The notes under the pieces: generated by a model | Told to the model about the DNA's origin: nothing | The model's input: the letters and a program-made list of their open reading frames with translations, nothing else | Database searches by the model: none | Program-made: the position numbers and the translations under genes | Shown: positions 8,830 to 58,923 of the stretch, in pieces | How positions within the stretch are numbered: the first letter of the stretch is position 1 | How the letters are laid out: the number at the start of each line of letters is the position of its first letter | Assembly (NCBI GenBank): GCA_038206475.1 | Contig: JBBRAU010000001.1 | Coordinates: forward strand, 141,732-205,731 | Reading direction: 5' to 3' | DNA from: Patescibacteria group bacterium | GTDB taxonomy: Bacteria > Patescibacteriota > UBA1384 > JBBRAU01 | Length of the DNA stretch: 64,000 nucleotides

Positions 8830-10317
8830 ATGGGGCAAGAACATGGGCAACCTGGCCAGTCGATCTGGCGCGATCTACACCTGGACACAGCCGGTCTGGT
8901 TTTTGCGTTGGTTGTTTTTGCAGTTTCCGCCGGTCTCTTGCACCTGCACAAACCGGCTGCTTCCGCCGATGACCTAGCTGGCCAGGCCGTCGCCGACGTA
9001 AGCGTCAATCCAACCGCTGACTTTACGATTAACGCCCGTGGCCAGCTGCTCAAAAGCGCGGCCGCAACTGGCGTTCGCGTCCACCGCTACGCCAATCGCG
9101 ATGAGCTGCGCTTTATTTGGATCAATAACCCCGGAGAGCCACTGGCTGCGGCAATCGCCGTTTTCCATTTGCCCAGCGGCGTCGCCAGCAACCTCGCCAA
9201 GCCCGAGTTAATTACACGCGCCGTATATAGTAAGGAGACGAGCGTTGTAGACGCCCAGTCGCTTAGCTTCTCGGCCGAAGGAGTTGACCCGGTTGGCACC
9301 GTCACGGTGGTGATTACACTGCCGCGCGGCAGCATCAAGCTGCCGATGTCTGCCAAGCTGTACGACGAACTAGCGGGGGAGCCGGCGCTGCTGTGGGCGG
9401 ATGTCGGGCTGTTTATTTTAACTATTGGTGTGATGATGCTCATCTGGTTGTCACGTCGTCGAATGGTCGAGTGGCAGGCGCTGCGTCGGGCCGGAGCGGT
9501 GCAAACAACGCCGCCAGCCGCCTTGCCACCCGCCGTAGTCGGCGTCTTTATTCGACAAAAGTTTACCAGCCGAGAGATCATCGCCACGCTGATTGATTTA
9601 GCTGAACGCGGCTACCTGCGTTTTAGTGAGCAGCCGAGCGGCACGACCATTGTGCCGCGCAAGCTTGATCCTGTCGGTCTTTACCCGCATGAACGTGAGG
9701 TGATGCAACTGTTGCAGTCAAGTGACCGGCTGCTCAAAGGGCTGGACCGCGACGTCTTTGAGGCTGAATCCGGCCGCCTAGTCATTGCTATTTACCGGCT
9801 GGTTGAGCGACTCGGCATTTTTGCCCGCAGTCCTCGGTGGACGCACCTGCGCTGGCGGACTGGAGGCGCTTTAATTACCCTCGGTGGTGCCGTCGGGCTG
9901 CTGTTCACCCTCCGGTTGTTCCCGGACCCACCATACATTGCCCTCTTTTGGCTGGCCGTTACGCTGATTGGGATAATTATTTTTCGTCTTGGCAGCGGCT
10001 ATACCGCCTACAGTGAAACTGGCCGCGGCGCCCTGGGCGCATGGCTGGCTTTTGGCCGCTATTTGGCTAGTCCGCAGCCGGCGACCTTAGACGAGGTGTC
10101 GTACGGCAGTTTTGTCCATTTTCTGGCCTATGCTGTGGCGCTCGGTGTCGATGAGGCGTGGCTACAGCGTTTTCGTGACCTGCCGTTTCAGTCACCAGAT
10201 TGGTATACACCGCTCCAGCCAGGTGTTACGGCCGAGCAATTCTACCAAGGCTTGATCCGACCAGCCGCGACTATCGGCGCGGCCATTAGCCAATCGGTAC
10301 TGCCAACCGTTGATTAG
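8830..10317 (+). CDS. DUF2207-type membrane protein (predicted)
   Basis: Architecture is N-terminal TM/signal, a ~200-aa extracytoplasmic region, a TM, a cytoplasmic region, then two C-terminal TMs (ITLGGAVGLLFTL, IALFWLAVTLIGIIIF). ATG 8830 is the likely start (ORF track 8782). Confidence 0.5.
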   Translation: MGQEHGQPGQSIWRDLHLDTAGLVFALVVFAVSAGLLHLHKPAASADDLAGQAVADVSVNPTADFTINARGQLLKSAAATGVRVHRYANRDELRFIWINNPGEPLAAAIAVFHLPSGVASNLAKPELITRAVYSKETSVVDAQSLSFSAEGVDPVGTVTVVITLPRGSIKLPMSAKLYDELAGEPALLWADVGLFILTIGVMMLIWLSRRRMVEWQALRRAGAVQTTPPAALPPAVVGVFIRQKFTSREIIATLIDLAERGYLRFSEQPSGTTIVPRKLDPVGLYPHEREVMQLLQSSDRLLKGLDRDVFEAESGRLVIAIYRLVERLGIFARSPRWTHLRWRTGGALITLGGAVGLLFTLRLFPDPPYIALFWLAVTLIGIIIFRLGSGYTAYSETGRGALGAWLAFGRYLASPQPATLDEVSYGSFVHFLAYAVALGVDEAWLQRFRDLPFQSPDWYTPLQPGVTAEQFYQGLIRPAATIGAAISQSVLPTVD

Positions 10318-24544: not shown

Positions 24545-24742
24545 TTTTCACAATTATTTTGATAGGGTCTGTTTTTTTCTATCGTACAGACAATCACCGA
24601 CCAGTAAAATGGGTGCGTAAGAACCTGCTCCTTCGGAACAGAACCTTTTCACTTGACGCTCCTGATAGCTCACTGGTTTGACGGGTAGGCTTACCACGCC
24701 AGTGGCAAGCCTTTGCAATAGATTTGCAGAATTGATGAACAC

Positions 24743-24818
24743 GGGTGCGTAGCTCAGTGGTTAGAGCAGACGGCTTATATCCGTCCGGTCCTAGGTTCGA
24801 TCCCTAGCGCACCCACCA
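24743..24818 (+). tRNA. tRNA-Ile, anticodon UAU (genomic TAT)
   Basis: Hand fold: acceptor GGGTGCG/CGCACCC, D-arm GCTC-AGTGGTTA-GAGC, anticodon stem GACGG/CCGTC, loop CTTATAT (T33, A37), T-arm CTAGG-TTCGATC-CCTAG, encoded CCA. Confidence 0.8.
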
Positions 24819-24969
24819 GCCACATACCCACATTGGTGTGTGGACATGTGACTGGTGTAGGAGATAGATCGAACCGGCAAGCGTAGTTTGCTTGGTGAGA
24901 GCCCATGAGACGAACAACGTGAGTCGCAAGGTTCTGCTGCGCAGCAGCAGGTTCTTTGCGCACCCACCA
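24807..24969 (+). repeat. direct 12-nt repeat GCGCACCCACCA (tRNA-Ile 3' end, 24807-24818, and copy at 24958-24969) flanking a 139-nt hairpin-rich segment
   Basis: Exact 12-mer occurs twice. The intervening segment contains the palindromes GCAAGCgtagtttGCTTGg and CTGCTGCGCAGCAG. Confidence 0.7.
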
Positions 24970-25492: not shown

Positions 25493-26231
25493 AACAATCC
25501 TTTCGTTTCTTGTTTATAGCAGTATTCGCGAAAACCTGAAGCTTAAGGGGCTAAGCGAGCCAAAAGGCGCGTATGGTTAGCCCGTTAGCTCACATGGTGA
25601 AGCGAAGCTGCTAATACGTTATCTCATGCGTCAAGCAGGTGGAAAACCCGACCACAAGTTCGTCGGTTCTTCATACCATGACCAACTCAGCTGAGAAGCG
25701 GCTGAGCCAGTGCACTCCTCTATTGAAAGGGAATTTCCAGAAAATACAAGATTGACGGGGCAGCCGACGTCTTGCTAGCGTTCTAGGCGGTAACACGTTT
25801 GTACCTATGGTCTGCGCCAGCGGGCCCAGAGGTTCTGAAGCAATGCTTTAGGTCCTCAGGACCGGCAACACTTGATCCAGCGGTGTACCGCCGGATCCAT
25901 GCAAAAGGAGGGGCGGCTAGTCTTTCGTCGAAGCAGCATAGTTGTTTGCGACCGATTGACGGCCCGTGGCAGTGCCACGCTCGTTTGCACGATAAGCAGG
26001 CTATGGGAAGTGGCGGTCGTGCCGCAGCACCACCCTTGTGACTGAATGATATTTTTGGGCCCGCCTCGCTGCGTCGAGCGCCGGCCACACTCTTGCCGTC
26101 TGCTTATATACGAAGCAGCCAGTTTTTGCTAATCAGGCGGCCGGAGTCCTGATTTCTCTTAGCCTGCGCTCCAATTTCTGGAGGGCAGAGATTAAAATTG
26201 AAAAATGAGCATATAGAAAGAAAGGAAGCAG

Positions 26232-29062: not shown

Positions 29063-29461
29063 ATGTCCCGCTCTGAGCAATTGACGAATCTTCTCTTTCG
29101 CGTCGGCGGTTTTATGGTGCTTATCTATGCCTTCTGGCTGATCGGCCGTGCCATCGTGCAAAACATTCACCAAAACCAGACGTTGGCTGATGCGACCAAA
29201 GCGGTGGATGCAGCCAAAGCGAAAAATGACGCTTTGCGCCTGGAGATTGCCTACGAGCAGACCGATACTTACCGCGAGAAGGAGCTTCGGCGTCGCTTCG
29301 GCTATCGCAAGGCTGGTGAAGTGGTGGTCTCAATGCCAGAGAATGCTGATCCGGAGACAACGCCGACGCCGACAGCTCAGCTGGAACCGCCGCCCGGTGT
29401 CGAGCGCTCGCCAGCCCGCCTTTGGTGGCAGTATTTCTTGGGTAAAAGCTCGCAGCGTTAA
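29063..29461 (+). CDS. ftsB: septum formation initiator family protein (FtsB/DivIC-like)
   Basis: One N-terminal TM (FMVLIYAFWLIGRAIV), coiled coil, and the FtsB/DivIC signature YREKELRRRFGYRKAGEVVV. Confidence 0.55.
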   Translation: MSRSEQLTNLLFRVGGFMVLIYAFWLIGRAIVQNIHQNQTLADATKAVDAAKAKNDALRLEIAYEQTDTYREKELRRRFGYRKAGEVVVSMPENADPETTPTPTAQLEPPPGVERSPARLWWQYFLGKSSQR

Positions 29462-31056
29462 GCGGCTTTTTGCTTGGCTAAGGCGGCAGCAACCAGCCCC
29501 AAAAAGAGGGGATGCGGCCGGGTCGGCCGCGACAGGAACTCCGGATGCGACTGTGTGGCTAAAAAGTAGGGATGGCCGGGCAATTCAATTAGCTCGGCCA
29601 AATCGCCATCGGGCGATAAGCCGGACAAGACCAGGCCTGTTCCCTCCAGCTGTTTATGGTAAGCCGGGTTGACTTCGTAGCGGTGACGATGGCGCTCCCA
29701 AATTTTAGATTGACCAAATAGCTCGGCGGCTTGGCTGCCGGCTTTCAGCCGAGCTTGGTAGGTGCCGAGGCGCAGGGTGCCGCCCAGCTCAGTGACATGG
29801 CGTTGATCTGGCAGGTAATCAACGACCGGCTGGGTCGTTTTTGGATCGAACTCGCTCGAGTTAGCATCCGTCAGGCCCGCTAAATCACGCGCGACTTCAA
29901 TCACCGCGCACTGCAGCCCAAGACAAATGCCGAGGAAGGGAATATTGTGCTCGCGGGCGTAGCGAATGGCCGTAATTTTACCCTCAATCCCGCGAATGCC
30001 AAAGCCGCCCGGTACCAAAATACCGTCGACCAGTTGAATCTGTTTGGGCAGCCGCCTGCCTTCAGCATCAATCGAGACAATTTGAACTTTGGCGTCGAGA
30101 GCCGCCCCGGCATGGCGCAGCGCCTCAGAAACCGATAAATAGGCATCAGGGTGGTCGAGGTATTTGCCGACCATGCCAATAGTTATGGTTTTTTTCAGGT
30201 GAGTGACGCGTCGAACCAGCTGCTTCCACTCGGAGAGGTTGCTCTTGCGACTCTTGAGTCCTAGTCGCTTCAAAACAACACGGGCTACGTGCTGCCGCTC
30301 CAAGTTAAGGGGCACTTCGTACAGGCTGTTAACGTCCAGTGCCTCGACGACATTCTCGTCGGCGATGCCGCCAAAGAGAGCGATTTTCTCACGCTCGGCG
30401 GCGGTCAGCGGCCGCTTGCAGCGCACTATCAACATATCGGGTACGATGCCGTAGCTCCTGAGCATGGCAACAGACTGCTGTATCGGCTTCGTTTTGCCTT
30501 CATCTGACGGGTAAATGTAATCCATTTTGACTACGTGGACGAACATGGCATTATGGCGTCCTACTTCCAGCGCATACTGGCGAATGGCCTCAATAAACGG
30601 CAGGGCTTCAAGGTCGCCGACGGTGCCGCCAACTTCGGCGATTAAAATATCTGGCTGATACTTCTCAATCGGCAGGCCCAGGCGTCGTTTAATTTCACCC
30701 GTGACGTGTGGCACCACCTGGATGGTTTTGCCGAGGTAGTCGCCTCGCCGCTCCTGCTCCATCAAGGTGCGGTAGACTGCGCCGGTGGTAAAATTGGACA
30801 GTTTAGTCAAAGCAATGTCCATGAACCGTTCGTAGTGGCCAAGGTCAAGGTCGGTTTCGGCGCCGTCGTCCGTCACAAATACCTCGCCGTGCTGAAACGG
30901 GTTCATGGTGCCAGCGTCTTCGTTTAAATACGGGTCGGCCTTAATTGGAATGACCGAAAAACCCTTATATTTTAAAAGCGCGCCAAGTGAAGCGACCGTA
31001 ATTCCTTTACCAATACCGGAGACAACGCCGCCGGTGACGAAAATGGTTTTGGCCAT
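29458..31056 (-). CDS. pyrG: CTP synthase
   Basis: MAKTIFVTGGVVSGIGKGI N-terminus. GATase triad region (GICLGLQ...H..H). Confidence 0.95.
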   Translation of the reverse strand: MAKTIFVTGGVVSGIGKGITVASLGALLKYKGFSVIPIKADPYLNEDAGTMNPFQHGEVFVTDDGAETDLDLGHYERFMDIALTKLSNFTTGAVYRTLMEQERRGDYLGKTIQVVPHVTGEIKRRLGLPIEKYQPDILIAEVGGTVGDLEALPFIEAIRQYALEVGRHNAMFVHVVKMDYIYPSDEGKTKPIQQSVAMLRSYGIVPDMLIVRCKRPLTAAEREKIALFGGIADENVVEALDVNSLYEVPLNLERQHVARVVLKRLGLKSRKSNLSEWKQLVRRVTHLKKTITIGMVGKYLDHPDAYLSVSEALRHAGAALDAKVQIVSIDAEGRRLPKQIQLVDGILVPGGFGIRGIEGKITAIRYAREHNIPFLGICLGLQCAVIEVARDLAGLTDANSSEFDPKTTQPVVDYLPDQRHVTELGGTLRLGTYQARLKAGSQAAELFGQSKIWERHRHRYEVNPAYHKQLEGTGLVLSGLSPDGDLAELIELPGHPYFLATQSHPEFLSRPTRPHPLFLGLVAAALAKQKAA

Positions 31057-31139
31057 ATGCTGCCTTTCGGTGTTTTTCCAACTTTACAAAAAGATGGCCC
31101 GGCTGGCCACCTGTTCTTTTTGCCGATTTCTGGTTTGGC

Positions 31140-31263
31140 AAGAACGTTACCAATTTCTTTGAAAATTGGTAAGAACCTGGCCTACGGCCAGAACCTTGCC
31201 AGCTGCTTCGCATCTGGTAAGAACCTGGCCAACTGCTTCGCATCTGGTAGCGGGGGTTGGACA
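31140..31263 (+). repeat. structured short-repeat family, copies pre-R1/R1/R2, plus a 19-nt duplicate of the tRNA-fMet 3' end (31245-31263)
   Basis: R1 31168-31200 is GGTAAG-AAC-CTGGCCtacGGCCAG-AAC-CTTGCC. R2 31216-31243 is a deletion variant. Before R1 sits ggcaagaacGTTACCAATttctttgaaaATTGGTAAgaacc. Each unit is preceded by cttcgcatCTGGTA, which matches the complement of the tRNA-fMet 3' end. Confidence 0.7.
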
Positions 31264-31439
31264 GACCCCTGGCGCGTCCGCCAGCCGGCGGACTTGCCGG
31301 GTACCCCCACACGCTTCGCCTGTCTAGCGGCAGACAGGCGTGTGACCGAACCAAGCTGCGCTTGATTCGGTCACACAACCCAATTACCAGAGAAGTGCCC
31401 ATCTTGCGATGAACACTTCTCTGGTAGCGGGGGTTGGAC
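31245..31439 (+). repeat. 19-nt direct repeat CTGGTAGCGGGGGTTGGAC (31245-31263 and 31421-31439) bounding a 157-nt segment with three perfect 8-11-bp hairpins
   Basis: The second copy is the 3' end of tRNA-fMet on the minus strand. Internal hairpins are GCCTGTCTagcggcAGACAGGC, GTGTGACCGAA...TTCGGTCACAC and CCAGAGAAGTG...CACTTCTCTGG. Confidence 0.7.
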
Positions 31440-31497
31440 TCGAACCAACGACCTCCAGCTTATGAGGCTGACGAGCTAACCACTGCTCCACCCCGCT
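31422..31497 (-). tRNA. tRNA-Met (CAU), initiator-like (A11:U24), with a paired A1-U72
   Basis: Minus-strand fold: AGCGGGG-TG-GAGC-AGTGGTTA-GCTC-G-TCAGC-CTCATAA-GCTGG-AGGTC-GTTGG-TTCGAGT-CCAAC-CCCCGCT-A-CCA. Very close to the bacterial tRNA-fMet consensus, except for 1-72 paired and only two G-C pairs in the lower anticodon stem. Confidence 0.8.
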
Positions 31498-31629
31498 ATA
31501 TGCGTGCACAACTTTAACTACTACTCGAATGAATCGAGCTTATATTAGTATACCATTTCTTATTTATGACGTCAATGTCAGAAGATGGCAGAAATGCCAT
31601 AAATATGCTAAAAATATAAGTGGACAGTT

Positions 31630-31742
31630 CATTTGCGCCAGGGTAAGAACTTCGCACTGCGTGCGAAAACCTTGCCCCAGCTCACTTCGTTCGCCAGGGT
31701 AACAACCTGAAGCTTCGCTTCAGAACGTTGCCCTGACCTTCA
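31630..31742 (+). repeat. structured short-repeat family, copies R3/R4, abutting the 5' end of tRNA-Met (plus)
   Basis: R3 31637-31676 is GCCAGGGTAAG-AAC-TTCGCACtgcGTGCGAA-AAC-CTTGCC. R4 31693-31733 is GCCAGGGTAAC-AAC-CTGAAGCttcGCTTCAG-AAC-GTTGCC. The outer boxes carry a compensatory G/C change and the inner stems differ entirely. GCCAGGGTA equals the first 9 nt of the adjacent tRNA. Confidence 0.7.
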
Positions 31743-31820
31743 GCCAGGGTAGCTCAGTTGGTTAGAGCGCGTCACTCATAACGACGAGGTTCGTGGGTTC
31801 GATCCCCACCCCTGGCACCA
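31743..31820 (+). tRNA. tRNA with CAU anticodon, elongator type (tRNA-Met, or tRNA-Ile2 if lysidinylated)
   Basis: GCCAGGG-TA-GCTC-AGTTGGTTA-GAGC-G-CGTCA-CTCATAA-CGACG-AGGTTC-GTGGG-TTCGATC-CCCAC-CCCTGGC-A-CCA. C11:G24 is elongator-type and 1-72 is paired. Confidence 0.75.
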
Positions 31821-31827
31821 AAATTAC

Positions 31828-32037
31828 ATGATGATATTGAATTTCCGAGCTACTGTTGAACGGAATTGCCAGATAAGCGCCGAGGAAAATGCCTATCTGG
31901 CGTATGTTCCCGATCTTGGGGTAGCGACTGATGGTGATACAGCGAAAGAAGTTCTGATAAGTATTCAAGAGATTGCAAGCATGTTCCTTCAAAGTCTGCG
32001 ACAAGACGGCTTAGTTGTGCCAAAGCCAGCCTTATGA
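31828..32037 (+). CDS. HicB-like / UPF0150 family small protein (antitoxin-type N-terminal domain only, 69 aa)
   Basis: AYLAYVPDLGVATDGDTAKEVLISIQEIASMFLQSLRQDGLVVPKP matches the HicB N-domain pattern (Y.A.VPDLPGC.T.G.T.EEAL.N..EAI). Its stop overlaps the lepA ATG (ATGA). Confidence 0.5.
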   Translation: MMILNFRATVERNCQISAEENAYLAYVPDLGVATDGDTAKEVLISIQEIASMFLQSLRQDGLVVPKPAL

Positions 32038-33851
32038 TCCAAGCTAATATTCGTAATTTTTGTATTATTGCCCACGTTGACCATGGTAAATCGACCCTGG
32101 CCGACCGTATGTTAGAGCTGACCAAAACGGTTGAGATGCGCGAGATGAAAGAGCAGCTGCTTGATCAAATGGACTTAGAGCGCGAGCGCGGTATTACTAT
32201 TAAGTTGCAACCAGTACGCATGCAGTGGCAAGGCGTCGAGATGAACTTAATTGACACGCCGGGACACGTTGATTTTGCCTATGAAGTTAGCCGCTCACTG
32301 GCGGCGGTTGAAGGCGCGGTTCTGTTGGTCGACGCCAGCCAAGGAATTCAAGCTCAAACGCTGGCCAATTTGCGCTTTGCCCGTGAGCATAATTTAGTCA
32401 TTATTCCGGTCATGAATAAAATTGACTTGCCCTCGGCCCGGCCAGAGGAGGTGGCGCTGCAGGTCAAAGAGCTGCTGCAGTGCACCGACGACGACATTCT
32501 GTTTGCCTCTGGCAAAACTGGCGAGGGTGTAACCGATATCTTAGATGCGGTCATTGCCCGCATTCCGGCCCCAAGCGGCCAAGCCGACGCCGCACCGCGA
32601 GCGCTCATTTTTGACTCAATTTACGATCCGTATCGCGGCGTCGTTATTTACGTACGCGTGGCAGACGGCCGGTTGCAAAAAGGAGATCGGGTACGTTTCT
32701 TGGCCACGAAGCGTGAGGCGCAGGTACTGGAAGTTGGCAGTTTCCGACCCAGTTTTCAGCCGGAGGCGGCGCTTGAGAGCGGCGAAATTGGCTATGTGAT
32801 TACCGATGTCAAAGCCGTCCGCGAGGCGCGGGTAGGGGACACACTGGCCCTGTCTGGCAAAGGTGGGGAGACAACGGCCTTGCCGGGCTACCGTGAGCCG
32901 CTGCCGATGGTTTACGCCGGCCTCTACCCGGCCCAAGGCGAGGCTTCAGCCAAGCTGCGCGATGCACTTGACCGTCTGAAATTGCAAGACGCCTCATTGT
33001 CGTTTGAGCCAGAATTTTCGCCAGCCTTAGGCTTCGGTTTTCGGGCCGGCTTTTTAGGTATGCTGCACCTGGATATTGTCCGTGAGCGTTTAGAGCGTCA
33101 CTTTGACCTTGACCTCATCATCACCACGCCGTCAGTGCCGGTTGAGGTGGTGCTATCGAGTGGGGAGGAGCGGATTATCCAGCGCGCCTCAGAGCTACCG
33201 AGCTCCAACGACCCCAGCTCGCGGCTGGGTCAGTTATCGATGGGGGAGATAGTTGAGTTGCGTGAGCCATGGGTGGCGGTTACGATTTTGACGCCAGAGC
33301 AGGGGATGGGCGGCGTGCTGGAGCTTTTGACTGGCCGACGGGGAATTCTTAAAAACGTCGCGCATTCTGGCTCTGGCACAGTCACGCTTGAAACCGAGGC
33401 TCCCCTACTCGGCGTCATTGTTGATTTCGCCGATAAGTTAAAAAGCTTAACCCAAGGCTACGCCTCATTTGACTATCATTTCATTGGTTTTCGGGCGGCT
33501 CCCCTCGCCCGCCTCGACGTTTTGATCGCCTCAGAGCCGGTTGACGCGCTAGCCCAAATTGTCCATAGAGACGAAGCCAAAGCCATTGGTGAACGCATTG
33601 TGACTAAATTGAAAGAGGCAATCCCTCGTCAGCAGTTTGTCATTAAACTGCAGGCGGCCATTGGCGCGACAATTGTTGCCCGCGAAGATATTCCAGCGGT
33701 TGGCAAAAACGTTACCGCGAAGCTCTATGGCGGCGACGTGACGCGTAAAAATAAACTGCTGGATAAGCAGAAAAAGGGTAAAAAGCGGCTGCAGCAAATT
33801 GGCAAAGTGGCTGTGCCAAATGAAGCTTTCTTGGCACTCCTGAGCCGGTAA
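32034..33851 (+). CDS. lepA: elongation factor 4 (LepA)
   Basis: G1 IIAHVDHGKSTL, G3 DTPGHVDF and the LepA-specific C-terminal domain. 605 aa. Confidence 0.95.
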   Translation: MIQANIRNFCIIAHVDHGKSTLADRMLELTKTVEMREMKEQLLDQMDLERERGITIKLQPVRMQWQGVEMNLIDTPGHVDFAYEVSRSLAAVEGAVLLVDASQGIQAQTLANLRFAREHNLVIIPVMNKIDLPSARPEEVALQVKELLQCTDDDILFASGKTGEGVTDILDAVIARIPAPSGQADAAPRALIFDSIYDPYRGVVIYVRVADGRLQKGDRVRFLATKREAQVLEVGSFRPSFQPEAALESGEIGYVITDVKAVREARVGDTLALSGKGGETTALPGYREPLPMVYAGLYPAQGEASAKLRDALDRLKLQDASLSFEPEFSPALGFGFRAGFLGMLHLDIVRERLERHFDLDLIITTPSVPVEVVLSSGEERIIQRASELPSSNDPSSRLGQLSMGEIVELREPWVAVTILTPEQGMGGVLELLTGRRGILKNVAHSGSGTVTLETEAPLLGVIVDFADKLKSLTQGYASFDYHFIGFRAAPLARLDVLIASEPVDALAQIVHRDEAKAIGERIVTKLKEAIPRQQFVIKLQAAIGATIVAREDIPAVGKNVTAKLYGGDVTRKNKLLDKQKKGKKRLQQIGKVAVPNEAFLALLSR

Positions 33852-50706: not shown

Positions 50707-53700
50707 ATGGGTAAACTCTTATCGCGGCTATGGGCAAGCGTATTACTCGCAACCATTGTTGTGAGTGTTTCTGGCGTCGCAACCGTCCCAACCGCCCAGG
50801 CAGCCGCCGGTATTCTGCATCAAATTAATTTTCAAGGCAAAGTTGTTAAATCTGACGGCACCAATGTCGCCAACGGCAGCTACGCCTTTGTTTTTAAGCT
50901 CTACGATAATTCGGCTGCCGGAACTCAGCTCGGCAATACGGAAACCCAAAGCCTAACCGTTACCGACGGCATCTTCCGCACAACGTTTTCGGATACGGCC
51001 GCAACTGGCCTACTCGAGAACGTTAATTTTAATTCTGACTCGCTCTACCTCGGGGTTAATTTCAACGGCGACGGCGAAATGACGCCGCGAGTGCGCTTTA
51101 CCTCAGTCCCCTACGCTTTCAATGCCGAGAAGGTAAACGGCCTAGCCGTGACCAATAATGCCGGCAATCCGCTGGCGGCGGGCTCAGCGCTCAAATTGCC
51201 AGACGGAAAAATAGTCGAATTTTCTGGCAGCAATAACCTAACCCTAACGACGACCGGGAATACGGTCGCGACCTTGCCGTCCGGCACGATCACCCTGGCC
51301 GACTTGAGCAGCACACAAGTCTTTAGCGGTGCCAAAACGTTTTCAGACTTGACCGTCTCCGACACCAACATCGCCCTGTCTGGTGCCTCAACCATCTTCA
51401 CCGGCACCGGAGCAATAACAGTCACGCCGGGCGGCGGCGGTGCTTTGAGCTTAAACTCGGCCGGAACCGGCAATACTGCTATTGGCAATGGCACCGGTAC
51501 CTTCCAACTCGACTCAAATACGCTTGACATCTCAACCGCCGGTGCCTTAAGTGGTGTCACCGGTATTGCCAGCTCCGGCGCCTACACCCAAACCGGTGTC
51601 AGCGCCAACACTTTCTCTGGGGCGACCACCTTCTCGGCGGCTGGTACGGCTGTATCGGTCACCAACGATGTTGGCATCGGCGGCGTTCTCCAAGTTGGTT
51701 CAACCACACCAACCACTTACTCCAGGCTCGGCACCAATACCACTGGTCATTCGCTTGGCGCGGCCTCAGACTTATTGGTCTCGGGCAATATTGAAGTTGA
51801 TGGCTCAGCCTTCTTTGACGGCACCGTGAGCTATGGCGGTGGTGCCAACTTTACGTTGACCACCAGCGCAAACAACATAACAACCGTTGCCGTTTCAACC
51901 ACCCAAACCGCAACCGGCGCCTTAACCGCCTCAACTGGTCTGTCCAGTCTCTGGCAGAGCAGTGCCGTAGTGGCTGGTGTTGGCGTTAGTCAAACCGCCT
52001 ACGGTAACTACACCACGGCTACTAAAACCGGGGCTGACACCGCTACCGGCACTTACAGCCTGTATGGCGATTACGCCAGCGTCAGCAATACCGGCTCGAC
52101 GAACGCCGGTACCAAAAATACTTACGGCGCGGCCTACTCGGCCACTGGCGATACGGCTGGTGCCTCAACTGCAACCGGACTGACAGTGACCGCCTCTGGT
52201 GCTGACACCAATCGTGGCCTTGAGATAACCGGCCCCACCTCAGCCGCCAACAACTATGCCCTGTACTCATCAGCCGCCGCTCAGTCGGTCATGGCTGGCA
52301 ACTTGCGGATTGGCTCAACTACCGCGCCAAACGTGGCACTGGATGTCACCGGCGCCGGCACCTTCTCTTCAACGCTGACGGCTTCAAATGGTCTCACGGT
52401 TTCAGCTGGTGGTGCCACGGTCGGTGGCAGCTCAACCGTCACTGGCACTTTGGGCATTTCTTCCTATCTCCAGGTTGGCTCGGTCACTGGTACCACCTAT
52501 TCGCGACTGGGCACGGGAGCAACTAACCACAGTCTGGCTGGCGCTGACAGTTTATTTGTCACTGGCAACTTGGAGGTTGACGGGTCGACCTATTACGATG
52601 GTGGCGTCACCTACGGCTCTGGCACCACCTATGACTCAACCGTCACCTTCAACTCCGATGTAGACTACGCCTTGGCTGGCACTGAAAACGTGACAATCAA
52701 CAATAGTAGCTACTCGACGCCATCAGCTGGCCTGCTCGATATTGCCGCAACTAGCAGCACAGATGACGTTCGCGTATTGCAAGCGGCGCTTACCTACTCT
52801 GCCACAGGGGCCGCGACTGGCTACACCAGCCGCAGCAGTTTTGCTAGCTCAGCCGTAGTGGCCGGAGCCGGCGTTTCCCAAACCGGCTATGCCAATTACA
52901 ACACCGCCACAAAAACCGGAGCAGATACGGCTACCGGCACCTATACGCTTTATGGTAGCTACAATACCGCTTCTAATACTGGCTCATCAGCCGGGACGAA
53001 AGTGACTATCGGCGGCGCCTTTACCGCTGTCGGTGATACTGGCGGCACCTCAACCGCCAAAGGCCTTACCGTCACTGCCTCAGGCGCCGATACCAACTAC
53101 GGTATTGAAATTACCGGTCCAACCTCGGCTACCAATAACTATGCCATCTACTCCAGTGCGGCGGCGCAATCGGCCATTGCTGGCAACGTGCGGGTTGGCT
53201 CAACCACGGCGCCTACGGTGGCATTAGATGTCACCGGCGCGGGATTGATTTCCTCAACCTTAGGCGTTTCTTCGACACTGACGGCCTCTAATGGTTTCAT
53301 CCAAACCACCGGCGCATTGAGTTTGACAGCTAGCTCTGGCTCATCGGCCATTACCCAAAGTGTTTTTGCCATTACTTCAACAGTCACCTCGGGCAACGGC
53401 TTCTCGGTGGCCTCGTCAACGGTTGACTCAGGCAACGTGGTGAGTCTCAATTCAACCAGCACGGCTGCCGCCTCTAACTCCCAAACCGTCTTAAACGTCG
53501 CCACCTCCGGCGCCAACGGTGCCTCAACTCAAACCACCTATGGCGCCAAAATTGCTAACACGCACACTGGCACTTCTTCCACTAATGTTGGTGGCTACTT
53601 CAGCGCCTCCGGCGGCACCAACAACTATGCCGCTATTTTTGACCAAGGCAATGTTGGTGTTGGCAACCCCACACCTTCACAGGCACTGAGCGTGACAGGG

Positions 53701-56700
53701 AGAGTTGCCATTGCTCCAAGCGGTACTGTCTCTGATGAACAGTACAACGGCAATTTGGTTATCACTAAACCAGTGTCCAGTGGACAGTACGTTAACCTAA
53801 TACGAGCTGGCACCTATGGATGGTCCCTGGGCTACGCCTACAACACCAGTACTTTCGCTATAGGCACTATTCAGGGAATAGACTCCAACTTTACTGCCCC
53901 TGCGCTGCAACTAGGAGCAAATGGAAACTTAACCATAACCGGATCCGTAACTGGCACTCAGTTAGTCTCGAATATTGCCACTGGCACCGCGCCCTTGCTC
54001 ATTACCTCAACCACCGTTGTGCCAAACCTTAACGTCTCACAGTTACTTGGTTCCACCTGGGCCGCCCCCGGGGCCATAGGTTCCACCACTCCCAACACCG
54101 GTGCTTTCACCACCCTGACCACCACCGGTACCATTAACTCCCAGGCCATCTCAGCCACCGCCGCCTTAACCGGCACCCTCTCCGTTGCCTCCACCTTAAC
54201 TGCCTCCAGTGGCTTGACTCAGACCACGGGAGCGCTCAATTTAACCGCCACCAGCGGCGCGCTGGCTATCTCTGGCTTAACCTCCGCCGCCCTGGCCACC
54301 GCCGCCTTAACCTTAAACACCACCGGTACTGGTACCACTCAAATTGGCAATGGCACCGGTACCTTCCAACTCGACTCAAATACGCTTGACATCTCAACGG
54401 CCGGTGCCTTAAGTGGTGTCACCGGTATTGCCAGCTCCGGCGCCTACACCCAAACCGGTGTCAGCGCCAATACCCTCACCGGCGCAACCTCCCTCACTGC
54501 CGCCGGCACCGCCCTTGCCGTTACCAACAACGCCACGATCGGCGGTACACTGACTGTTGGCGCCGTCTCGTCTGCCTCTGGTGCCGGTATTTTTGATTCG
54601 CTGAGCGTGGGTGGCGGTTACGGTTCAACCGGCGTCAGTATCTCGAATACCGGCAATATCCAAGCCAATGGCACGCTTACGGTGGATTCGACAATCGGCA
54701 TTGGTGGCGCTCCAGCGAGCTCAGCCGGGCTGCTGACCACCGGTGCTATCACCGCCACCACCAGTCAGTATGGCGTTGAGGCGGCCAACACCTTTAGCTC
54801 AGCGGCCACCACCGGTGCCAGCTTCTACGCTCTACCGCAGACGGCGGCAGCGGCTTATACCGTCACCAGTCTGTATAATTACCTCGCCTCTAATGCCAGC
54901 CTTGGCGTGGGCAGTGCTGTCACTAACCAATATGGTTTCTACAGCCCCGACTTAACTAGCGGCAGTAATAACTACGGTTTCTATGCCAATATTTCCTCGG
55001 GGACTAATAAATACGCCTTCTATGGTGGCGGCAATGCCCCGAGTTACTTTGGCGGCAACGTCGGTATTGGCACCGCGTCACCGAGTAACAAACTAACCAC
55101 TGTAGACACTGCAGGCGGTGTTCTTTGGCCAGGCATTCGTATCAAGAATGCCGCCAATTCCGTCAATACTGGTGCGGCCATAGAATTCAGTGTCCTGAAC
55201 GGTAGCAATGCGGAAACGGTGATGGGTCAGATAGGCGCCGCAGTTAACTCGGGGACGGCTGGTAGCGAGTTTGGTTACCTTACATTTCGGGCCAGTGTAG
55301 GTGGTACGCCGACAGAGGTGCTTCGTGTCTGGCCGGGGGCTGCGAGTACTACCCAGACCTCTATTACGCAAAGCACCGGTTCATCAGGACTGAATGTCAT
55401 CATTCCCTCCTATGTTGCAAATTCATACACCCCCGGCCTCTTCTGGAGCACGGCGGATAACAATCCATCAAAGCCGAAGGCGGGCATTTATACTCAGCTT
55501 ACGGCAACGGGGACCTATCTTTTGCTGGGCACTTCAAATTCATATGCAACAGGCATTACCAGCAACGTTATTATCGATCCAACCGGCAATGTCACTGGCG
55601 GCACCTACAACGGCCAGACCATCTCCAGTGCCGCCAGTTTCACCGGCACGGTTGGGGTGGCCAACTCGGTCACCGCACCAACGGTTAACGTTGGCACCGC
55701 CGGTGCTTCAACCGGAGTACTCAACCTGTCAGGGGCGACCTCTGGTACCATCTCCATCAAAGGTCAGGCCGCCGCTGGCAGCTACAACTTTAACTTACCA
55801 ACCACGGTTGGTTCTTCCGGTTTCGTGCTTACTTCAGCGGGCGGGGGAGTCACCGCCATGACCTGGACTGATCCGGCTGGTCTGACGGCAGGGACTGCCA
55901 CCAGCGTGCTCTTCTCCGGTGTGCAAGCCGCCACCAACACCGGCCAGGCACTGCTGGTTGGTAATGGCTCCTCATTAGGTGTGACCGGCACCGGCACCAT
56001 CAACGCCACCACCCTGCTTGGTTCTACTTGGGCTATCCCCGGGGCCATAGGTTCCACCACTCCCAACACCGGTGCTTTCACTACGGTCGCTTCAACCGGT
56101 ATTGCCTCATCGGGTAGCTATACCCAGACCGGAAGCGGTGCCAATACGTTCACTGGCGCCTCATCATTCACTGCCGCCGGTACGGCGCTAACAGTTAATA
56201 ATAGTGCTCAGATTTCCGGTGTAGTGGGGGTGGGTGGTGCTACTTATTCAAGTACGGGTCTAATCATCAGAAACACAAACTTAGCAACCGCTGATCAATA
56301 TGGTGCCTATATTTCGCCCACCTTTAACTCTTCTGCTACTCACGGAGCCGGCGGCGTTGTGTCTTCCCCCTCTACTAGTGCAGCTGCGTTTACGATTCCC
56401 ATACTCTATGACTACTATGCAGGCATTGTTTCAATTGGTGCTGGAAGCAGCGTCACTACTCAGTATGGCTACTTTGCGGAAGACCTGACTGGTGCCACCA
56501 ATAGCTACGGATACTTCAGTAACATGTCCTCGGGGGCTAATAAGTACGCTTTCTATGGGGCAGGGACGGCGGCTAGCGTCTTTCTGGGCAATGTTGGTGT
56601 TGGCACCAGCGGACCTTTGGCCAAACTACATGTCTCATCGGGCGACAGTGCAGTAATTAGCTTAGTTTCAGGTGTTAGCAAGGGTATCCGCTTTGGTGCT

Positions 56701-58923
56701 AACTCCTCGACGGCCATCATTAATGGTGTTGATAACACTGGTACAGGTTCATATCAGCCCCTGTCGCTTGGCGGTTCTGAGTTGCGGTTCAACAACTCCG
56801 CCGTGGAAGTGGCCAGGCTTAATTCCAGTGGTAATCTGGGCGTTGGTGCTACGACCACTATTTCCGCTCGGCTGCACTCTCTTGCCACCACCGAGCAGCT
56901 GCGCTTGGGCTATGATGCCGCCAACTACGCCGCCTTTACCGTCTCCTCCGGCGGCAACCTGACGCTGGCACCAACTGGCGGCACGACGAACGCTGCGGGT
57001 GCCCTGGCCGTGACTACTTCAATTACCGCACCAACCCTCTACGGCGGTGCTGCCTCCGGCGGCAATCTCACCCTCTCCTCTACCAGCAACGCTACGAAGG
57101 GTAAATTACTGATGGGCGGCTCTGCCTTTGTGGAATCAGCTAACCAGCTTGGCCTTGGCACTACCGCCCCAGACGCAAAGCTATCTATCGCCATAGCTCA
57201 GGCAGGTACCCAGTACATTCAGGGCCAGTTTGCCGGAACCAATACCGCTTCCGATCTTGGTAAGTTCCGGGTAGGTGGGGGCGAGATTGGTACTGGCGGC
57301 GTTGACCGGGCCTACCTTGAGGTGCGCCAGACCTGGAACGGTGCTACTACTGATACTGAACTAGGCCTCTATTCCACCAAGGGCGGGATTGGCGGCGGCG
57401 AGCGGCTGACAGTGCTGGGGAGCGGAAACGTCGGTATCGGTAATACTAACCCTGCCGCCTTACTCAGCGTGGGTAGCGGCGACAAATTACAAGTAGGCGC
57501 AACCGGCAACCTCAAACTCACCAACGTCACCACCGGCTCCAACACCAGTTCCCCCACCATCAACTTGGAAGGCAACGGCTTCACCGCTGGCCCCACCAAC
57601 ACCACCGGCTCCTTCTCCATGCAGACCATCCCCAGCAGTGCCACGGCTGCCAAGCTGATGATCGCCGTTACTGGCTTTGCCACCCAGAACGTTGCCTCAC
57701 TGACTGAAGCCGGTGCCTGGATTACCAAAGGCGCCCAAACCGCTAGCGGTACGCCGGACGTAGCTGAGTTTATTGGCACCACGGCCGAAGTGACTGCCGG
57801 AGACGTGGTAGTAGCGGCCGCTGGCCAGAACGGCAACGAGAACTTTGTAGCCACCCGCAACAGTGTACGCGGCAACCCCAGCGTCATTGGCGCCATTGCC
57901 GACGGTACCTCCGGCGTGCAGATCAATTCGTACGGCCAGTACAACGACTTCACCAATGGCACGCTCAGCAATAAGGGCAAACCGATGACTATTGCCGGCC
58001 GTATTCCGGTCAAGGTGACAACCCGCGGCGGCAGCCAACCCATTCTCCGTGGCGACCTCCTTATGGCCTCCGACAAGCCCGGTTACGCCGAGAAGTATGA
58101 TCCCGCCTCCGGCCCTTTGGTCGGCATCATCGGCGTTGCTCTAGACGAATTGCCTGCGGGCGACGGTAAGGTTTTTGCCCAGATCCAAATCTCTCGTGTC
58201 AGCGCTTCTCAGGCGCTTCTCGGCACAGCGCAGGATCTCGGTATCACTACGCTTACTGTTTCCAGCTCAGCTCTGTTCAAAGGAGACTTGAACGTGATTG
58301 GCAATGTGACGATCGGCGGCAGTTTGACTATTGGTAGCTCAAGTACGTCTAAGCTGGTTTTTAGGGTGCTTGGTCAGTCGCAATTTGGCAGCGACACCGA
58401 CAACCTGGCGATTAGTGAAAAGGGCCAGCTAACCCGCCATGGCCAGGCCACCACTAACCAGACTTTAGAGAACCTAGGCAAAGTGAGTGCAGCCAGCCCA
58501 ACCAATGTTTTGCCGCTGACTACGCTAATAGGCGCGGCTACTATTTCGTCTAGCCTGAGCCAGCCTGATGTGCCGCGCAACGTAACCTTGACAGCCATCG
58601 GCCTACGCGGCCTGGTCACGGTCAAGGGCATCTTGGCCGACAGCACCGAGGCGAGTGAGCAATTTAATGTCGTGGCTGACGGAATGATGCTTGGTCAAAA
58701 AGCCTTCCTGTCCATTAATAACGTGTCGGTGCCGGGTGCTGGGCAAATAAGTCTGGGTACTGGCCAAAAGCTGGGTCTGTCTAATAGTTTGCACGGTCAA
58801 AATGGTGTCTACTTGACACAAAAAGACGCCGCCCGAGTTACAGCGCAAGTGGATAGCCAAAACAGCACCGTTGACCTGGGACCATTAAATGGTGAAGCCA
58901 TTAAAATTTGGTACCGCTACTAA
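50707..58923 (+). CDS. giant secreted repeat protein (2738 aa) with tail-fibre-like Gly/Thr/Ser/Ala-rich beta repeats
   Basis: Signal peptide MGKLLSRLWASVLLATIVVSVSGVATVPTAQA. Repeated modules NNYA(I/L)YSSAAAQS..AGN.R.GSTTAP.VALDVTGAG and NKYAFYG.G.A.S.F.GNVG(I/V)GT..P..KL.V. Large internal duplications: near-identical ~130-bp DNA at 51481-51610 and 54346-54478, and ~85-bp at 54041-54125 and 56021-56100. No C-terminal TM or LPXTG. Confidence 0.75.
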   Translation: MGKLLSRLWASVLLATIVVSVSGVATVPTAQAAAGILHQINFQGKVVKSDGTNVANGSYAFVFKLYDNSAAGTQLGNTETQSLTVTDGIFRTTFSDTAATGLLENVNFNSDSLYLGVNFNGDGEMTPRVRFTSVPYAFNAEKVNGLAVTNNAGNPLAAGSALKLPDGKIVEFSGSNNLTLTTTGNTVATLPSGTITLADLSSTQVFSGAKTFSDLTVSDTNIALSGASTIFTGTGAITVTPGGGGALSLNSAGTGNTAIGNGTGTFQLDSNTLDISTAGALSGVTGIASSGAYTQTGVSANTFSGATTFSAAGTAVSVTNDVGIGGVLQVGSTTPTTYSRLGTNTTGHSLGAASDLLVSGNIEVDGSAFFDGTVSYGGGANFTLTTSANNITTVAVSTTQTATGALTASTGLSSLWQSSAVVAGVGVSQTAYGNYTTATKTGADTATGTYSLYGDYASVSNTGSTNAGTKNTYGAAYSATGDTAGASTATGLTVTASGADTNRGLEITGPTSAANNYALYSSAAAQSVMAGNLRIGSTTAPNVALDVTGAGTFSSTLTASNGLTVSAGGATVGGSSTVTGTLGISSYLQVGSVTGTTYSRLGTGATNHSLAGADSLFVTGNLEVDGSTYYDGGVTYGSGTTYDSTVTFNSDVDYALAGTENVTINNSSYSTPSAGLLDIAATSSTDDVRVLQAALTYSATGAATGYTSRSSFASSAVVAGAGVSQTGYANYNTATKTGADTATGTYTLYGSYNTASNTGSSAGTKVTIGGAFTAVGDTGGTSTAKGLTVTASGADTNYGIEITGPTSATNNYAIYSSAAAQSAIAGNVRVGSTTAPTVALDVTGAGLISSTLGVSSTLTASNGFIQTTGALSLTASSGSSAITQSVFAITSTVTSGNGFSVASSTVDSGNVVSLNSTSTAAASNSQTVLNVATSGANGASTQTTYGAKIANTHTGTSSTNVGGYFSASGGTNNYAAIFDQGNVGVGNPTPSQALSVTGRVAIAPSGTVSDEQYNGNLVITKPVSSGQYVNLIRAGTYGWSLGYAYNTSTFAIGTIQGIDSNFTAPALQLGANGNLTITGSVTGTQLVSNIATGTAPLLITSTTVVPNLNVSQLLGSTWAAPGAIGSTTPNTGAFTTLTTTGTINSQAISATAALTGTLSVASTLTASSGLTQTTGALNLTATSGALAISGLTSAALATAALTLNTTGTGTTQIGNGTGTFQLDSNTLDISTAGALSGVTGIASSGAYTQTGVSANTLTGATSLTAAGTALAVTNNATIGGTLTVGAVSSASGAGIFDSLSVGGGYGSTGVSISNTGNIQANGTLTVDSTIGIGGAPASSAGLLTTGAITATTSQYGVEAANTFSSAATTGASFYALPQTAAAAYTVTSLYNYLASNASLGVGSAVTNQYGFYSPDLTSGSNNYGFYANISSGTNKYAFYGGGNAPSYFGGNVGIGTASPSNKLTTVDTAGGVLWPGIRIKNAANSVNTGAAIEFSVLNGSNAETVMGQIGAAVNSGTAGSEFGYLTFRASVGGTPTEVLRVWPGAASTTQTSITQSTGSSGLNVIIPSYVANSYTPGLFWSTADNNPSKPKAGIYTQLTATGTYLLLGTSNSYATGITSNVIIDPTGNVTGGTYNGQTISSAASFTGTVGVANSVTAPTVNVGTAGASTGVLNLSGATSGTISIKGQAAAGSYNFNLPTTVGSSGFVLTSAGGGVTAMTWTDPAGLTAGTATSVLFSGVQAATNTGQALLVGNGSSLGVTGTGTINATTLLGSTWAIPGAIGSTTPNTGAFTTVASTGIASSGSYTQTGSGANTFTGASSFTAAGTALTVNNSAQISGVVGVGGATYSSTGLIIRNTNLATADQYGAYISPTFNSSATHGAGGVVSSPSTSAAAFTIPILYDYYAGIVSIGAGSSVTTQYGYFAEDLTGATNSYGYFSNMSSGANKYAFYGAGTAASVFLGNVGVGTSGPLAKLHVSSGDSAVISLVSGVSKGIRFGANSSTAIINGVDNTGTGSYQPLSLGGSELRFNNSAVEVARLNSSGNLGVGATTTISARLHSLATTEQLRLGYDAANYAAFTVSSGGNLTLAPTGGTTNAAGALAVTTSITAPTLYGGAASGGNLTLSSTSNATKGKLLMGGSAFVESANQLGLGTTAPDAKLSIAIAQAGTQYIQGQFAGTNTASDLGKFRVGGGEIGTGGVDRAYLEVRQTWNGATTDTELGLYSTKGGIGGGERLTVLGSGNVGIGNTNPAALLSVGSGDKLQVGATGNLKLTNVTTGSNTSSPTINLEGNGFTAGPTNTTGSFSMQTIPSSATAAKLMIAVTGFATQNVASLTEAGAWITKGAQTASGTPDVAEFIGTTAEVTAGDVVVAAAGQNGNENFVATRNSVRGNPSVIGAIADGTSGVQINSYGQYNDFTNGTLSNKGKPMTIAGRIPVKVTTRGGSQPILRGDLLMASDKPGYAEKYDPASGPLVGIIGVALDELPAGDGKVFAQIQISRVSASQALLGTAQDLGITTLTVSSSALFKGDLNVIGNVTIGGSLTIGSSSTSKLVFRVLGQSQFGSDTDNLAISEKGQLTRHGQATTNQTLENLGKVSAASPTNVLPLTTLIGAATISSSLSQPDVPRNVTLTAIGLRGLVTVKGILADSTEASEQFNVVADGMMLGQKAFLSINNVSVPGAGQISLGTGQKLGLSNSLHGQNGVYLTQKDAARVTAQVDSQNSTVDLGPLNGEAIKIWYRY

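Follow-up and report, generated by a model that had tools for sequence, protein, structure and literature searches.

An apparently undescribed family of tiny palindromic repeats, found at tRNA genes of a Patescibacteria genome and in gut and rumen Clostridia

A 64,000-nt stretch of the genome of a Patescibacteria group bacterium (GCA_038206475.1, contig JBBRAU010000001.1, positions 141,732 to 205,731), hereafter the window, carries 5 full copies and 1 truncated copy of a short hairpin-forming unit (R1 to R6), all of them intergenic and located at most approximately 135 nt from 3 of the 4 tRNA genes of the window; the fourth, tRNA-Lys, has no unit. The units apparently belong to an undescribed family of tiny palindromic repeats, which occurs in many genomes of the candidate phyla radiation and of gut and rumen Clostridia; no description of the motif was found in the literature. 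We favor, with a probability of roughly 0.55, the reading that the units are copies of a non-autonomous miniature palindromic repeat similar to repetitive extragenic palindromic (REP) elements, probably selfish mobile DNA. The grounds for this reading are the cross-phylum signature, the free and perfectly paired stem, the mismatched bubble, and the occurrence of dispersed identical copies and arrays, together with nesting in palindromes, overlap with stop codons, insertion in duplicated tRNA genes, patchy distribution and the absence of a linked gene.

The family is characterized by the conserved core (A)T-AAG-AAC-CU...AG-AAC-CUU-G around a variable, perfectly paired stem of 6 to 8 bp closed by a loop of 3 to 4 nt, with the units being 29 to 55 nt long. 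In the folded core, both strands read AG[AAC]CU over a 3x3 internal loop, which is thus two-fold symmetric, and a T.G pair lies directly outside AAG/CTT in 79 of the 97 family copies drawn from the matches listed in the genome scan described below. The inner stem is not constrained in sequence: 6 of the 7 modelled pairs have changed on both sides, and 97% of the cells are paired. The stems are nearly pure Watson-Crick (620 Watson-Crick pairs, 5 G.T and 9 A.C among the matches listed). A preliminary description of the units at the tRNA-Met genes had read such covariation as the mark of selection on structure. What holds of this claim is that structure defines the family, the boxes being conserved and the stems variable; the covariation does not imply that RNA structure is under selection, because nearly pure Watson-Crick stems are the pattern of DNA palindromes, not the one usual for functional RNAs. 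In the duplex, the spacing between the 2 half-sites ranges from 18 to 22 bp and tracks the length of the stem, and the geometry is constant only when the unit is folded. Two sub-types can be distinguished: many clostridial copies carry a second small hairpin (GTTAC-TC-GC-TTC-GC-TC-GTAAT or GGCGTTC-stem-TCGGCTAA), the place of which is taken by a long outer stem in many patescibacterial copies, those of the window among them. A Shapirobacteria tandem, AACCTTGCC-TTT-GGTAAGAAC, has the same GGTAAG/CTTGCC boxes as the window.

Several known elements could be set aside at this stage. Scans against Rfam 15 with gathering and E-value thresholds (the window, locus L053 and 20 further loci) returned only tRNAs and noise, with nothing passing at the units, which rules out a known RNA family; a match to CRISPR-DR50 was itself noise (18 bits vs a gathering score of 47). 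A CRISPR array was rejected on the differing repeat cores and the irregular spacing of 48 to 56 nt. The units are not intrinsic terminators either, as they continue into AACCTTG... with no U tract, and terminator-like sites within 30950-32100 are found only elsewhere.

Scanning a species-representative genome collection with AAGAACCTG-N9-13-CAGAACCTT yielded at least 119 loci. Among the matches listed, 98 of 131 enclose a good hairpin, giving at least 98 hairpin copies, whose host counts follow the labels of the metagenome-assembled genomes (MAGs). Nearly all were from Clostridia/Oscillospirales (49 hairpins; Ruminococcaceae, Acutalibacteraceae, Oscillospiraceae, Faecalibacterium), Patescibacteria (23; Saccharibacteria, Shapiro-, Levyi-, Blackburn- and Paceibacteria, WWE3), MAGs labelled 'uncultured Gammaproteobacteria' (10) or unclassified bacteria (8), and the rest were from Desantisbacteria (3), Leptospira (1) and other phyla (4). 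A covariance model built from 26 units, an analysis which the preliminary description had proposed, gave 94 matches in the first 99 of the at least 119 loci; 694 kb of metagenomic contigs unrelated to these, scanned as a control, contained no match at E<=1. In the 64-kb window, it recovered exactly the 5 full units (E 1e-5 to 4e-11) and nothing else credible; a weak match at 25830-25856 was rejected as a unit. Thus, the motif is widespread and not confined to the locus or the genome where it was noticed, a possibility for which the preliminary description had allowed. The same pattern matched 27 times in 2.9 million viral contigs, with none of the matches being a hairpin. This result serves as the chance baseline and is also evidence against carriage of the element by phages; an origin from phages was rejected on the same ground.

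The units lie between genes, with mixed orientation relative to their neighbors (27 same/same and 17 opposite/opposite among the matches listed), frequently 20 to 80 nt from start codons or at stop codons; in 13 cases among the matches listed, the TAA of TAAGAAC is the TAA stop of the upstream gene. Identical copies are dispersed within single genomes: one Shapirobacteria MAG contains 4 identical CTGTCGAAACGACAG copies with different flanks, and copies are present on several contigs each in the Ruminococcaceae MAG RUG14020 and the Clostridia MAG RUI026. Tandem arrays, often with differing members, are common and run head-to-tail (R3-R4, L013, L036, L041, L042, L053, L069); otherwise, the copies are single. 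No 'empty' TAAGAACCTTG site was found in 795 kb, indicating that the conserved flanks travel with the hairpin and arguing against these flanks being the duplicated target of a variable hairpin insert. Among the loci listed, no gene family recurs beside the units, and the genes enclosed by inverted unit pairs are ordinary (MFS, PBP2, SpoIID), with no transposase or integrase.

The symmetry of the AG[AAC]CU core and the frequent position near start or stop codons would also suit an operator or binding site, on DNA or RNA, for a dimeric regulator controlling the tRNAs, pyrG or other neighbors, and several copies lie near dnaK/dnaJ. We nevertheless regard such a site as improbable: the duplex spacing of the half-sites varies with the length of the stem, leaving only the folded form constant, the neighboring genes are unrelated, and neither tandem arrays nor insertion into tRNA genes is operator-like. 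The dnaK-dnaJ association, seen in different MAGs with units at or near the junction of the 2 genes (L031, L032, L072, L079; in L031 at the dnaK stop codon), may only reflect the ease of clustering these conserved proteins. In 2 Clostridia MAGs, units were observed within runs of AGCAGAT(A) heptamers (L020, 150-330 and 2230-2420; L075, 5930-5980), and in L020, 2 nearly identical inverted units bracket a single MFS transporter gene.

In the window, most of the units occupy the region between pyrG (29458-31056, minus strand) and lepA (32034-33851, plus strand), which contains 2 tRNA-Met(CAU) genes, an initiator-like one at 31422-31497 on the minus strand and another at 31743-31820 on the plus strand. 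An independent Logan assembly is identical to the window over positions 30844-32039, the whole spacer included, and the array is therefore not an assembly artefact. The pattern GGTAAS-AAC-N13-21-AAC-STTGCC has 3 exact matches, all on the plus strand (31168-31200 in R1, 31642-31676 in R3 and 31698-31732 in R4), and none in 100 dinucleotide shuffles. Together with a truncated fourth unit (R2, 31216-31230), these account for the at least 4 units with conserved outer boxes of the preliminary description, and further particulars given there also held: the inner stems of R1, R3 and R4 are perfect (6, 7 and 7 bp), unrelated to one another in sequence, and have 3-nt loops with AAC on both sides; the left-box G>C substitution of R4 is compensated by C>G in the right box; and the T.G wobble is possible on the plus strand only, in keeping with its conservation across the family. 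The units had been assigned to the upstream region of pyrG, which is accurate for R1 and R2 only; R3 and R4 are in the presumed 5' leader of the plus-strand tRNA-Met.

R3 (31637-31681, plus strand; covariance model E 4e-10) reads GCCAGGGTA followed by AG-AAC-TTCGCAC-TGC-GTGCGAA-AAC-CTT-GCCCCAGC, and R4 (31693-31737, plus strand; E 6e-11) reads GCCAGGGTA followed by AC-AAC-CTGAAGC-TTC-GCTTCAG-AAC-GTT-GCCCTGAC. In both (31637-31645 and 31693-31701), GCCAGGGTA equals positions 1-9 of the tRNA-Met at 31743, as had been noticed in the preliminary description. The fold of R4 has a z of -4.8, and its 9-bp outer stem pairs up to tRNA position +1; the leader and the tRNA-Met together fold as independent unit hairpins and a cloverleaf (z -4.9). 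R1 is part of a composite, R0/R1, forming a three-way junction (31136-31201, plus strand) with the outer stem TGGCAAG/CTTGCCA, a 10-bp hairpin 0 at 31147-31172 (TTACCAATTT/AAATTGGTAA) and hairpin 1 (CTGGCC-TAC-GGCCAG) within 31168-31200. An AAC-containing strand is present at all 3 junctions, the DNA fold is -17.5 kcal/mol (z -3.9), and the covariance model matches R1 at 31165-31204 (E 1e-5). R2, identified by direct reading of the sequence (plus strand, GGTAAGAACCTGGCC), is without loop, 3' arm and right box, and is bracketed by a 17-nt direct repeat, CTGCTTCGCATCTGGTA, at 31203-31219 and 31233-31249. The (TC)TGGTA preceding R1 and R2 is the complement of the 3' end of the minus-strand tRNA-Met, the second tRNA-end-like motif that had been recognized correctly.

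The 3' end of this tRNA-Met is copied a third time, by an 18-nt fragment, TGGTAGCGGGGGTTGGAC, at 31245-31262, which is the complement of tRNA positions 59-76 and ends just before A58. It opens a plus-strand segment (31245-31309) that continues with the hairpin CCTGG-CGC-GTCCGCC-AGCC-GGCGGAC-TTG-CCGGG, the 3x3 internal loop of which gives it a unit-like architecture with no AAC motif. Retroviral primer-binding sites have this length of 18 nt, as do att-site remnants. Priming of the retroviral kind was rejected, despite the suggestive stop at A58, since by our reasoning the polarity of the unit-tRNA junctions misfits products of cDNA synthesis or primer extension; the copy is possibly coincidental. 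Three strong palindromes (31317-31340, 31340-31376 and 31386-31425) lie between the minus-strand tRNA-Met and the units, and, apart from the units, the 376 nt separating this tRNA from pyrG are a succession of strong palindromes (RNA fold z -8.9). The palindrome at 31386-31425 is a near-perfect one of 18 bp, and its right arm takes in the last 4 bases (ACCA) of the tRNA-Met and the trailer, indicating that the 3' end of this gene is part of an inverted duplication. Closer to pyrG, at 31092-31112 on the minus strand, the start codon of pyrG is preceded at a distance of approximately 35 nt by an 8-bp G+C-rich hairpin and TTTTTG, which resemble a leader attenuator or terminator of pyrG and are separate from the repeat units.

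The remaining 2 units, found by scanning the window for AAC-hairpin-AAC, are on either side of tRNA-Ile(UAU) (24743-24818, plus strand). R5 (24611-24655, plus strand; covariance model E 4e-11) starts with GGGTGCGTA, equal to tRNA-Ile positions 1-9, continues as AG-AAC-CTGCTCC-TTC-GGAACAG-AAC-CTT-TTCAC, and is located 88 nt upstream of the gene. Its stem contains a single mismatch, the outer stem is weak, and the fold is not better than those of shuffles. R6 (24921-24969, minus strand; E 4e-11) reads TGGTGGGTGCGC-AAAG-AAC-CTGCTGC-TGC-GCAGCAG-AAC-CTT-GCGACTC; on the left it is flanked by the complement of the 3' end of tRNA-Ile (12 nt exact, 13/14), such that on the plus strand the unit terminates in GCGCACCCACCA, the 3' end of the tRNA. 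A UAU anticodon in tRNA-Ile is unusual for bacteria. The gene is conserved at the syntenic position (4814-4888) in the nearest sampled relative, L270.

Among the matches listed, 24 of 131 lie within 300 nt of a tRNA. Approximately a dozen tRNA-linked cases were inspected by eye (the 6 window units, L002, L043, L076 and the clostridial tRNA-Arg loci; the tRNA-adjacent unit of L080 is outside this set), and they follow one arrangement: the TAAGAAC side is joined to an inward-read copy of the outer end of the gene, and the AACCTTG side faces the real gene. In this genome, copies have thus been retained at tRNA gene termini with the TAAGAAC side joined to a copy of the outer tRNA end. The 5'-side copies comprise exactly positions 1-9 in tRNA-Met (twice), tRNA-Ile and tRNA-Ala (L076), and at least 14 nt, upstream sequence included, in tRNA-Pro (L002); the 3'-side copies measure 5 to 7 nt (R1/R2) and 12 to 14 nt (R6). 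The sequence following the unit is complementary to the copied tRNA end up to +1, so that the outer helix resembles an acceptor stem lengthened by TAAG/CTTG. Two metagenomic tRNA-Met loci (L227, L221) have upstream acceptor-stem mimics with no AAC core. The left 9-mer is repeated downstream in 25 of 83 units vs 4 to 6 in controls; these flank repeats are real yet not a uniform target duplication. Direct repeats of 9 nt flank R3, R4, R5 and the L076 unit, flank repeats elsewhere measure 5, 14 or more nt and are missing from 58 of 83 units. A uniform 9-bp target duplication, which fits the four 5'-side tRNA cases, was rejected, as it does not fit R1, R2, R6 or most other copies.

In Oscillospirales, the units also interrupt copies of tRNA genes. 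At L053 (163-930), 2 full-length tRNA-Arg(CCT) copies carry a precise insert of approximately 50 nt in the D-loop, as well as additional T-arm defects, with an intact copy alongside. Many Oscillospirales species (L053, L013, L018, L023, L035, L082, L088, L098, L100) have a 5' fragment of tRNA-Arg(CCT) (-14 to +22), 1 or 2 units, located in the D-loop, positions +23 to +32 and then the intact gene, and in still others a unit-carrying 3' fragment follows the intact gene. The interrupted copies are pseudogenes beside intact genes. A tRNA intron, group I or spliced, was rejected given the constant presence of an intact copy, the extra defects and the absence of an Rfam intron match to the approximately 50-nt insert. 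At L039 (3170-3330, minus strand) and L012 (2590-2700, plus strand), a gene ending in a tRNA-like T-arm and ...ATACCTCTGCCA, for which ARAGORN and Rfam make no call, is followed by a second copy of its 3' end interrupted by a unit. In L002 (4340-4440), upstream of tRNA-Pro(CGG), tRNA positions 2-13 and their inverted copy form a perfect 12-bp palindrome, with the unit inserted after position 9.

Such fragments could, in principle, be all there is to explain, the units being the decay of local tRNA gene duplications or integrated elements (att remnants, tRNA pseudogenes), with hairpins formed by quasi-palindrome template switching and neither dedicated mobility nor function involved. The 18-nt copy of the tRNA-Met 3' end, of a size typical of att duplications, the L002 palindrome derived from the tRNA-Pro 5' end, the clostridial tRNA-Arg fragments adjoining intact genes, and R2, which with its 17-nt direct repeats resembles slippage, are all in line with decay. 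It leaves unexplained, though, the invariant 15-nt signature in distant phyla and in copies far from tRNAs, as well as the identical copies at dispersed loci of one MAG, and no integrase is found nearby among the 30 window open reading frames (ORFs) tested; we consider decay by itself a rather unlikely account.

An explanation that deserves more weight, while still an unlikely one, is that the units are functional cis-RNA elements of tRNA precursors, acceptor-stem mimics made up of the 5' strand of the tRNA, its complement and a fixed internal loop approximately 11 bp from +1. RNase P or a different factor of tRNA processing would bind or cut them, and long leaders and trailers would be diced or the enzyme titrated. 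R3, R4, R5 and the L076 unit start exactly at the copy of tRNA positions 1-9 and their complementarity stops at +1, R6 terminates exactly at ...ACCA, and the folding of the leader with tRNA-Met into separate hairpins and a cloverleaf points the same way, as do the conserved U.G, possible on the AAC strand only, the degenerate 3' arm of R5, which by our reading still pairs via G.U in RNA, and the mimics without an AAC core in other lineages. Against this role, most family members are away from tRNAs, orientation relative to transcription is mixed, and G.U pairs are not enriched in the stems. Furthermore, units downstream of tRNAs are reversed on the tRNA strand, turning the U.G into an A.C mismatch, and orthologous tRNAs in 2 relatives (L269, L270) and 120 metagenomic tRNA-Met loci have no units.

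The host is a deep-branching lineage of Patescibacteria. Its best PyrG relative is 73% identical and its best LepA relatives 60% to 62%, with Berkelbacteria and Jorgensenbacteria among the PyrG matches and Doudnabacteria among those of LepA. L270 (GCA_041890195.1) is syntenic over YkuD transpeptidase, tRNA-Ile(UAU), fn3 protein, DivIC, tRNA-Met(-), tRNA-Met(+), lepA, tRNA-Lys, DnaJ, DnaK and GrpE. The preliminary description had named relatives as a place to look for the motif, and neither units nor mimics were present at the tRNA-Ile, both tRNA-Met and the tRNA-Lys loci of L270, with the covariance-model filters off; L269 had no units, nor did any of the 120 loci from a metagenome scan anchored on the 5' 26-mer of tRNA-Met. 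Thus, the units are lineage-specific additions to conserved tRNA loci. The L270 ortholog of the initiator-like tRNA-Met (9412-9755, minus strand) is interrupted by a group I intron (9492-9716; Rfam Intron_gpI, 66 bits), and ARAGORN did not call the gene; the copy in the window has no intron.

If the units are indeed a REP-like mobile repeat, a trans-encoded enzyme or binding protein, probably a dimer, would recognize the folded single strand. A dimeric reader is suggested by the two-fold symmetry of the loop, and the folded single strand by the fact that this form alone has a constant geometry. By analogy with REP/RAYT and IS200/IS605, the recognized form would be single-stranded DNA, and copies would spread to T|A(A)-type sites. 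The copies tolerate and build tandem arrays and nest within other palindromes; where they are nested in inverted duplications of tRNA ends, acceptor-stem-like outer helices result. Effects at the RNA level, for instance on the structure of leaders or trailers, on processing or on insulation from pyrG, are put forward as a proposal only and would be secondary.

Several observations weigh against this reading. No transposase, RAYT or recombinase is encoded by the 30 window ORFs tested or beside any copy listed, which leaves the mobilizing machinery hypothetical, and the 5 window copies all differ in their stems, with no sign of recent transposition in this genome. No pair of filled and empty sites between close strains was obtained. 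The flanking direct repeats vary (5, 9, 9, 9 and 14 nt), and the downstream 9-mer repeat is confined to the 25 of 83 units mentioned above. In the tRNA-linked cases, the TAAGAAC side faces outward and the flank copy starts at the mature tRNA end (+1 or CCA); this mirror-image orientation and the start of the copies at mature termini are not predicted by plain insertion and keep the acceptor-stem-mimic role at the RNA level alive as a minority possibility. Finally, units keep the same position upstream of tRNA-Arg(CCT) in many Oscillospirales species, and 2 Desantisbacteria retain a unit after the same gene, a positional persistence that may indicate function.

In genomes as tiny and densely packed as those of Patescibacteria, one would not expect a non-coding repeat to be kept in multiple copies at tRNA genes. 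A structural signature of 15 nt common to Patescibacteria and to rumen and gut Clostridia points to an unnamed recognition machinery, either conserved or horizontally spread, and the repeat offers a handle for discovering the enzyme through phylogenetic profiling. It is also a cheap marker for strain typing and for problems of assembly and annotation, such as broken tRNA calls and tRNA pseudogenes, and the loci lend themselves to testing, in a natural setting, for an interaction of RNase P with acceptor-stem mimics located in tRNA leaders.

Pfam searches of 30 window ORFs identified ordinary genes (L,D-transpeptidase, RNase J-like, DivIC, pilins, DnaJ, GrpE, RuvC, S15, AbiEii, Fic) and no integrase, recombinase, transposase or Y1 transposase. 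A nearby integrase or recombinase would have suited one of the 4 roles offered in the preliminary description, that of integron attC-like or other tyrosine-recombinase sites, which the units loosely resemble in layout: paired outer boxes enclose an unpaired central spacer and an inner stem that ends in a short, variable loop, and recognition is of the folded single strand. However, the box test contradicts this role, with AAC present on both sides of the same strand instead of RYYYAAC...GTTRRRY, and no cassette ORFs are found between the units; we judge it very improbable, and of the 4 roles the evidence favors the REP/MITE-like element. A 69-aa ORF between the plus-strand tRNA-Met and lepA (31828-32037, plus strand) has no Pfam match and shows, by eye only, a resemblance to HicB-type antitoxins (...AYVPDLG...DT..E....I.E). 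An AbiEii-type nucleotidyltransferase toxin domain (60046-60711, plus strand), a Fic/DOC protein (62039-62425, minus strand) and a 2738-aa ORF (50707-58923, plus strand) are unconnected with the repeats.

Comparison with known systems places the units closest to REPs. Integron attC sites share with them the structure-defined, sequence-variable hairpin, the unpaired central spacer and the reading as a folded single strand, but the units have no R''/R' boxes, cassettes or, among the window ORFs tested, integrase. Miniature inverted-repeat transposable elements (MITEs), RPE, Correia and ERIC elements, the very small cyanobacterial repeats, and the GC clusters and hairpin elements of mitochondria are all tiny non-coding, hairpin-forming repeats that are intergenic and occasionally occur in RNA or protein genes. 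The units appear to differ from MITEs in having no terminal inverted repeats matching an insertion sequence and no uniform target duplication; they are also much smaller than typical MITEs, and their stem sequence is free. In E. coli tRNA operons, the tRNA-linked repeats likewise contain short copies of a tRNA end, placed within that tRNA's own locus in its spacer or distal part; these differ from the units in being direct 3'-end repeats in units of approximately 180 bp, with no conserved hairpin or internal loop.

REP, BIME and REPIN elements are associated with RAYTs and fall into GTAG- and CGTC-tagged superfamilies; their end tags are shared between phyla, RAYT needs a mismatched bubble in order to cleave them, clusters are reiterated together with flanking DNA, and REPs nest inside target palindromes (PMC3733652). 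Like them, the units are extragenic imperfect palindromes (20-55 nt) in multiple copies per genome, with short end tags shared across phyla, variable stems and a mismatched bubble within the hairpin, and they occur as single copies, tandems or clusters repeated with their flanks, or nested in other palindromes. By contrast, their tag is TAAGAAC/GAACCTTG, with the ends (T)AAGAAC and GAACCTT(G) in place of GTAG or CGTC; their conserved motif is a symmetric 3x3 loop in mid-helix; they are arranged head-to-tail or singly, not as the head-head or tail-tail dimers of REPINs; and their hosts are Patescibacteria and Oscillospirales, with no RAYT linked and the window copies tied to tRNA termini. As the units differ from REPs in their tag (no GTAG or CGTC) and in lacking the dimer organization, and as their enzyme is hypothetical, we call them REP-like in working and not members of the REPs. 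A bolder proposal, which we advance only tentatively and hold to be doubtful, is that the AAGAAC...GAACCTT hairpins make up a third superfamily of REP-like elements, undescribed so far and shared by Patescibacteria and Firmicutes, with its own, probably homodimeric enzyme reading the two-fold symmetric AG[AAC]CU loop. Its insertion chemistry would copy tRNA ends as inverted duplications, and the enzymes of tRNA processing may in turn recognize the acceptor-stem mimics that this would create. Even if the units are only selfish DNA, they extend REP-type elements well past the mostly proteobacterial hosts in which these have been catalogued.

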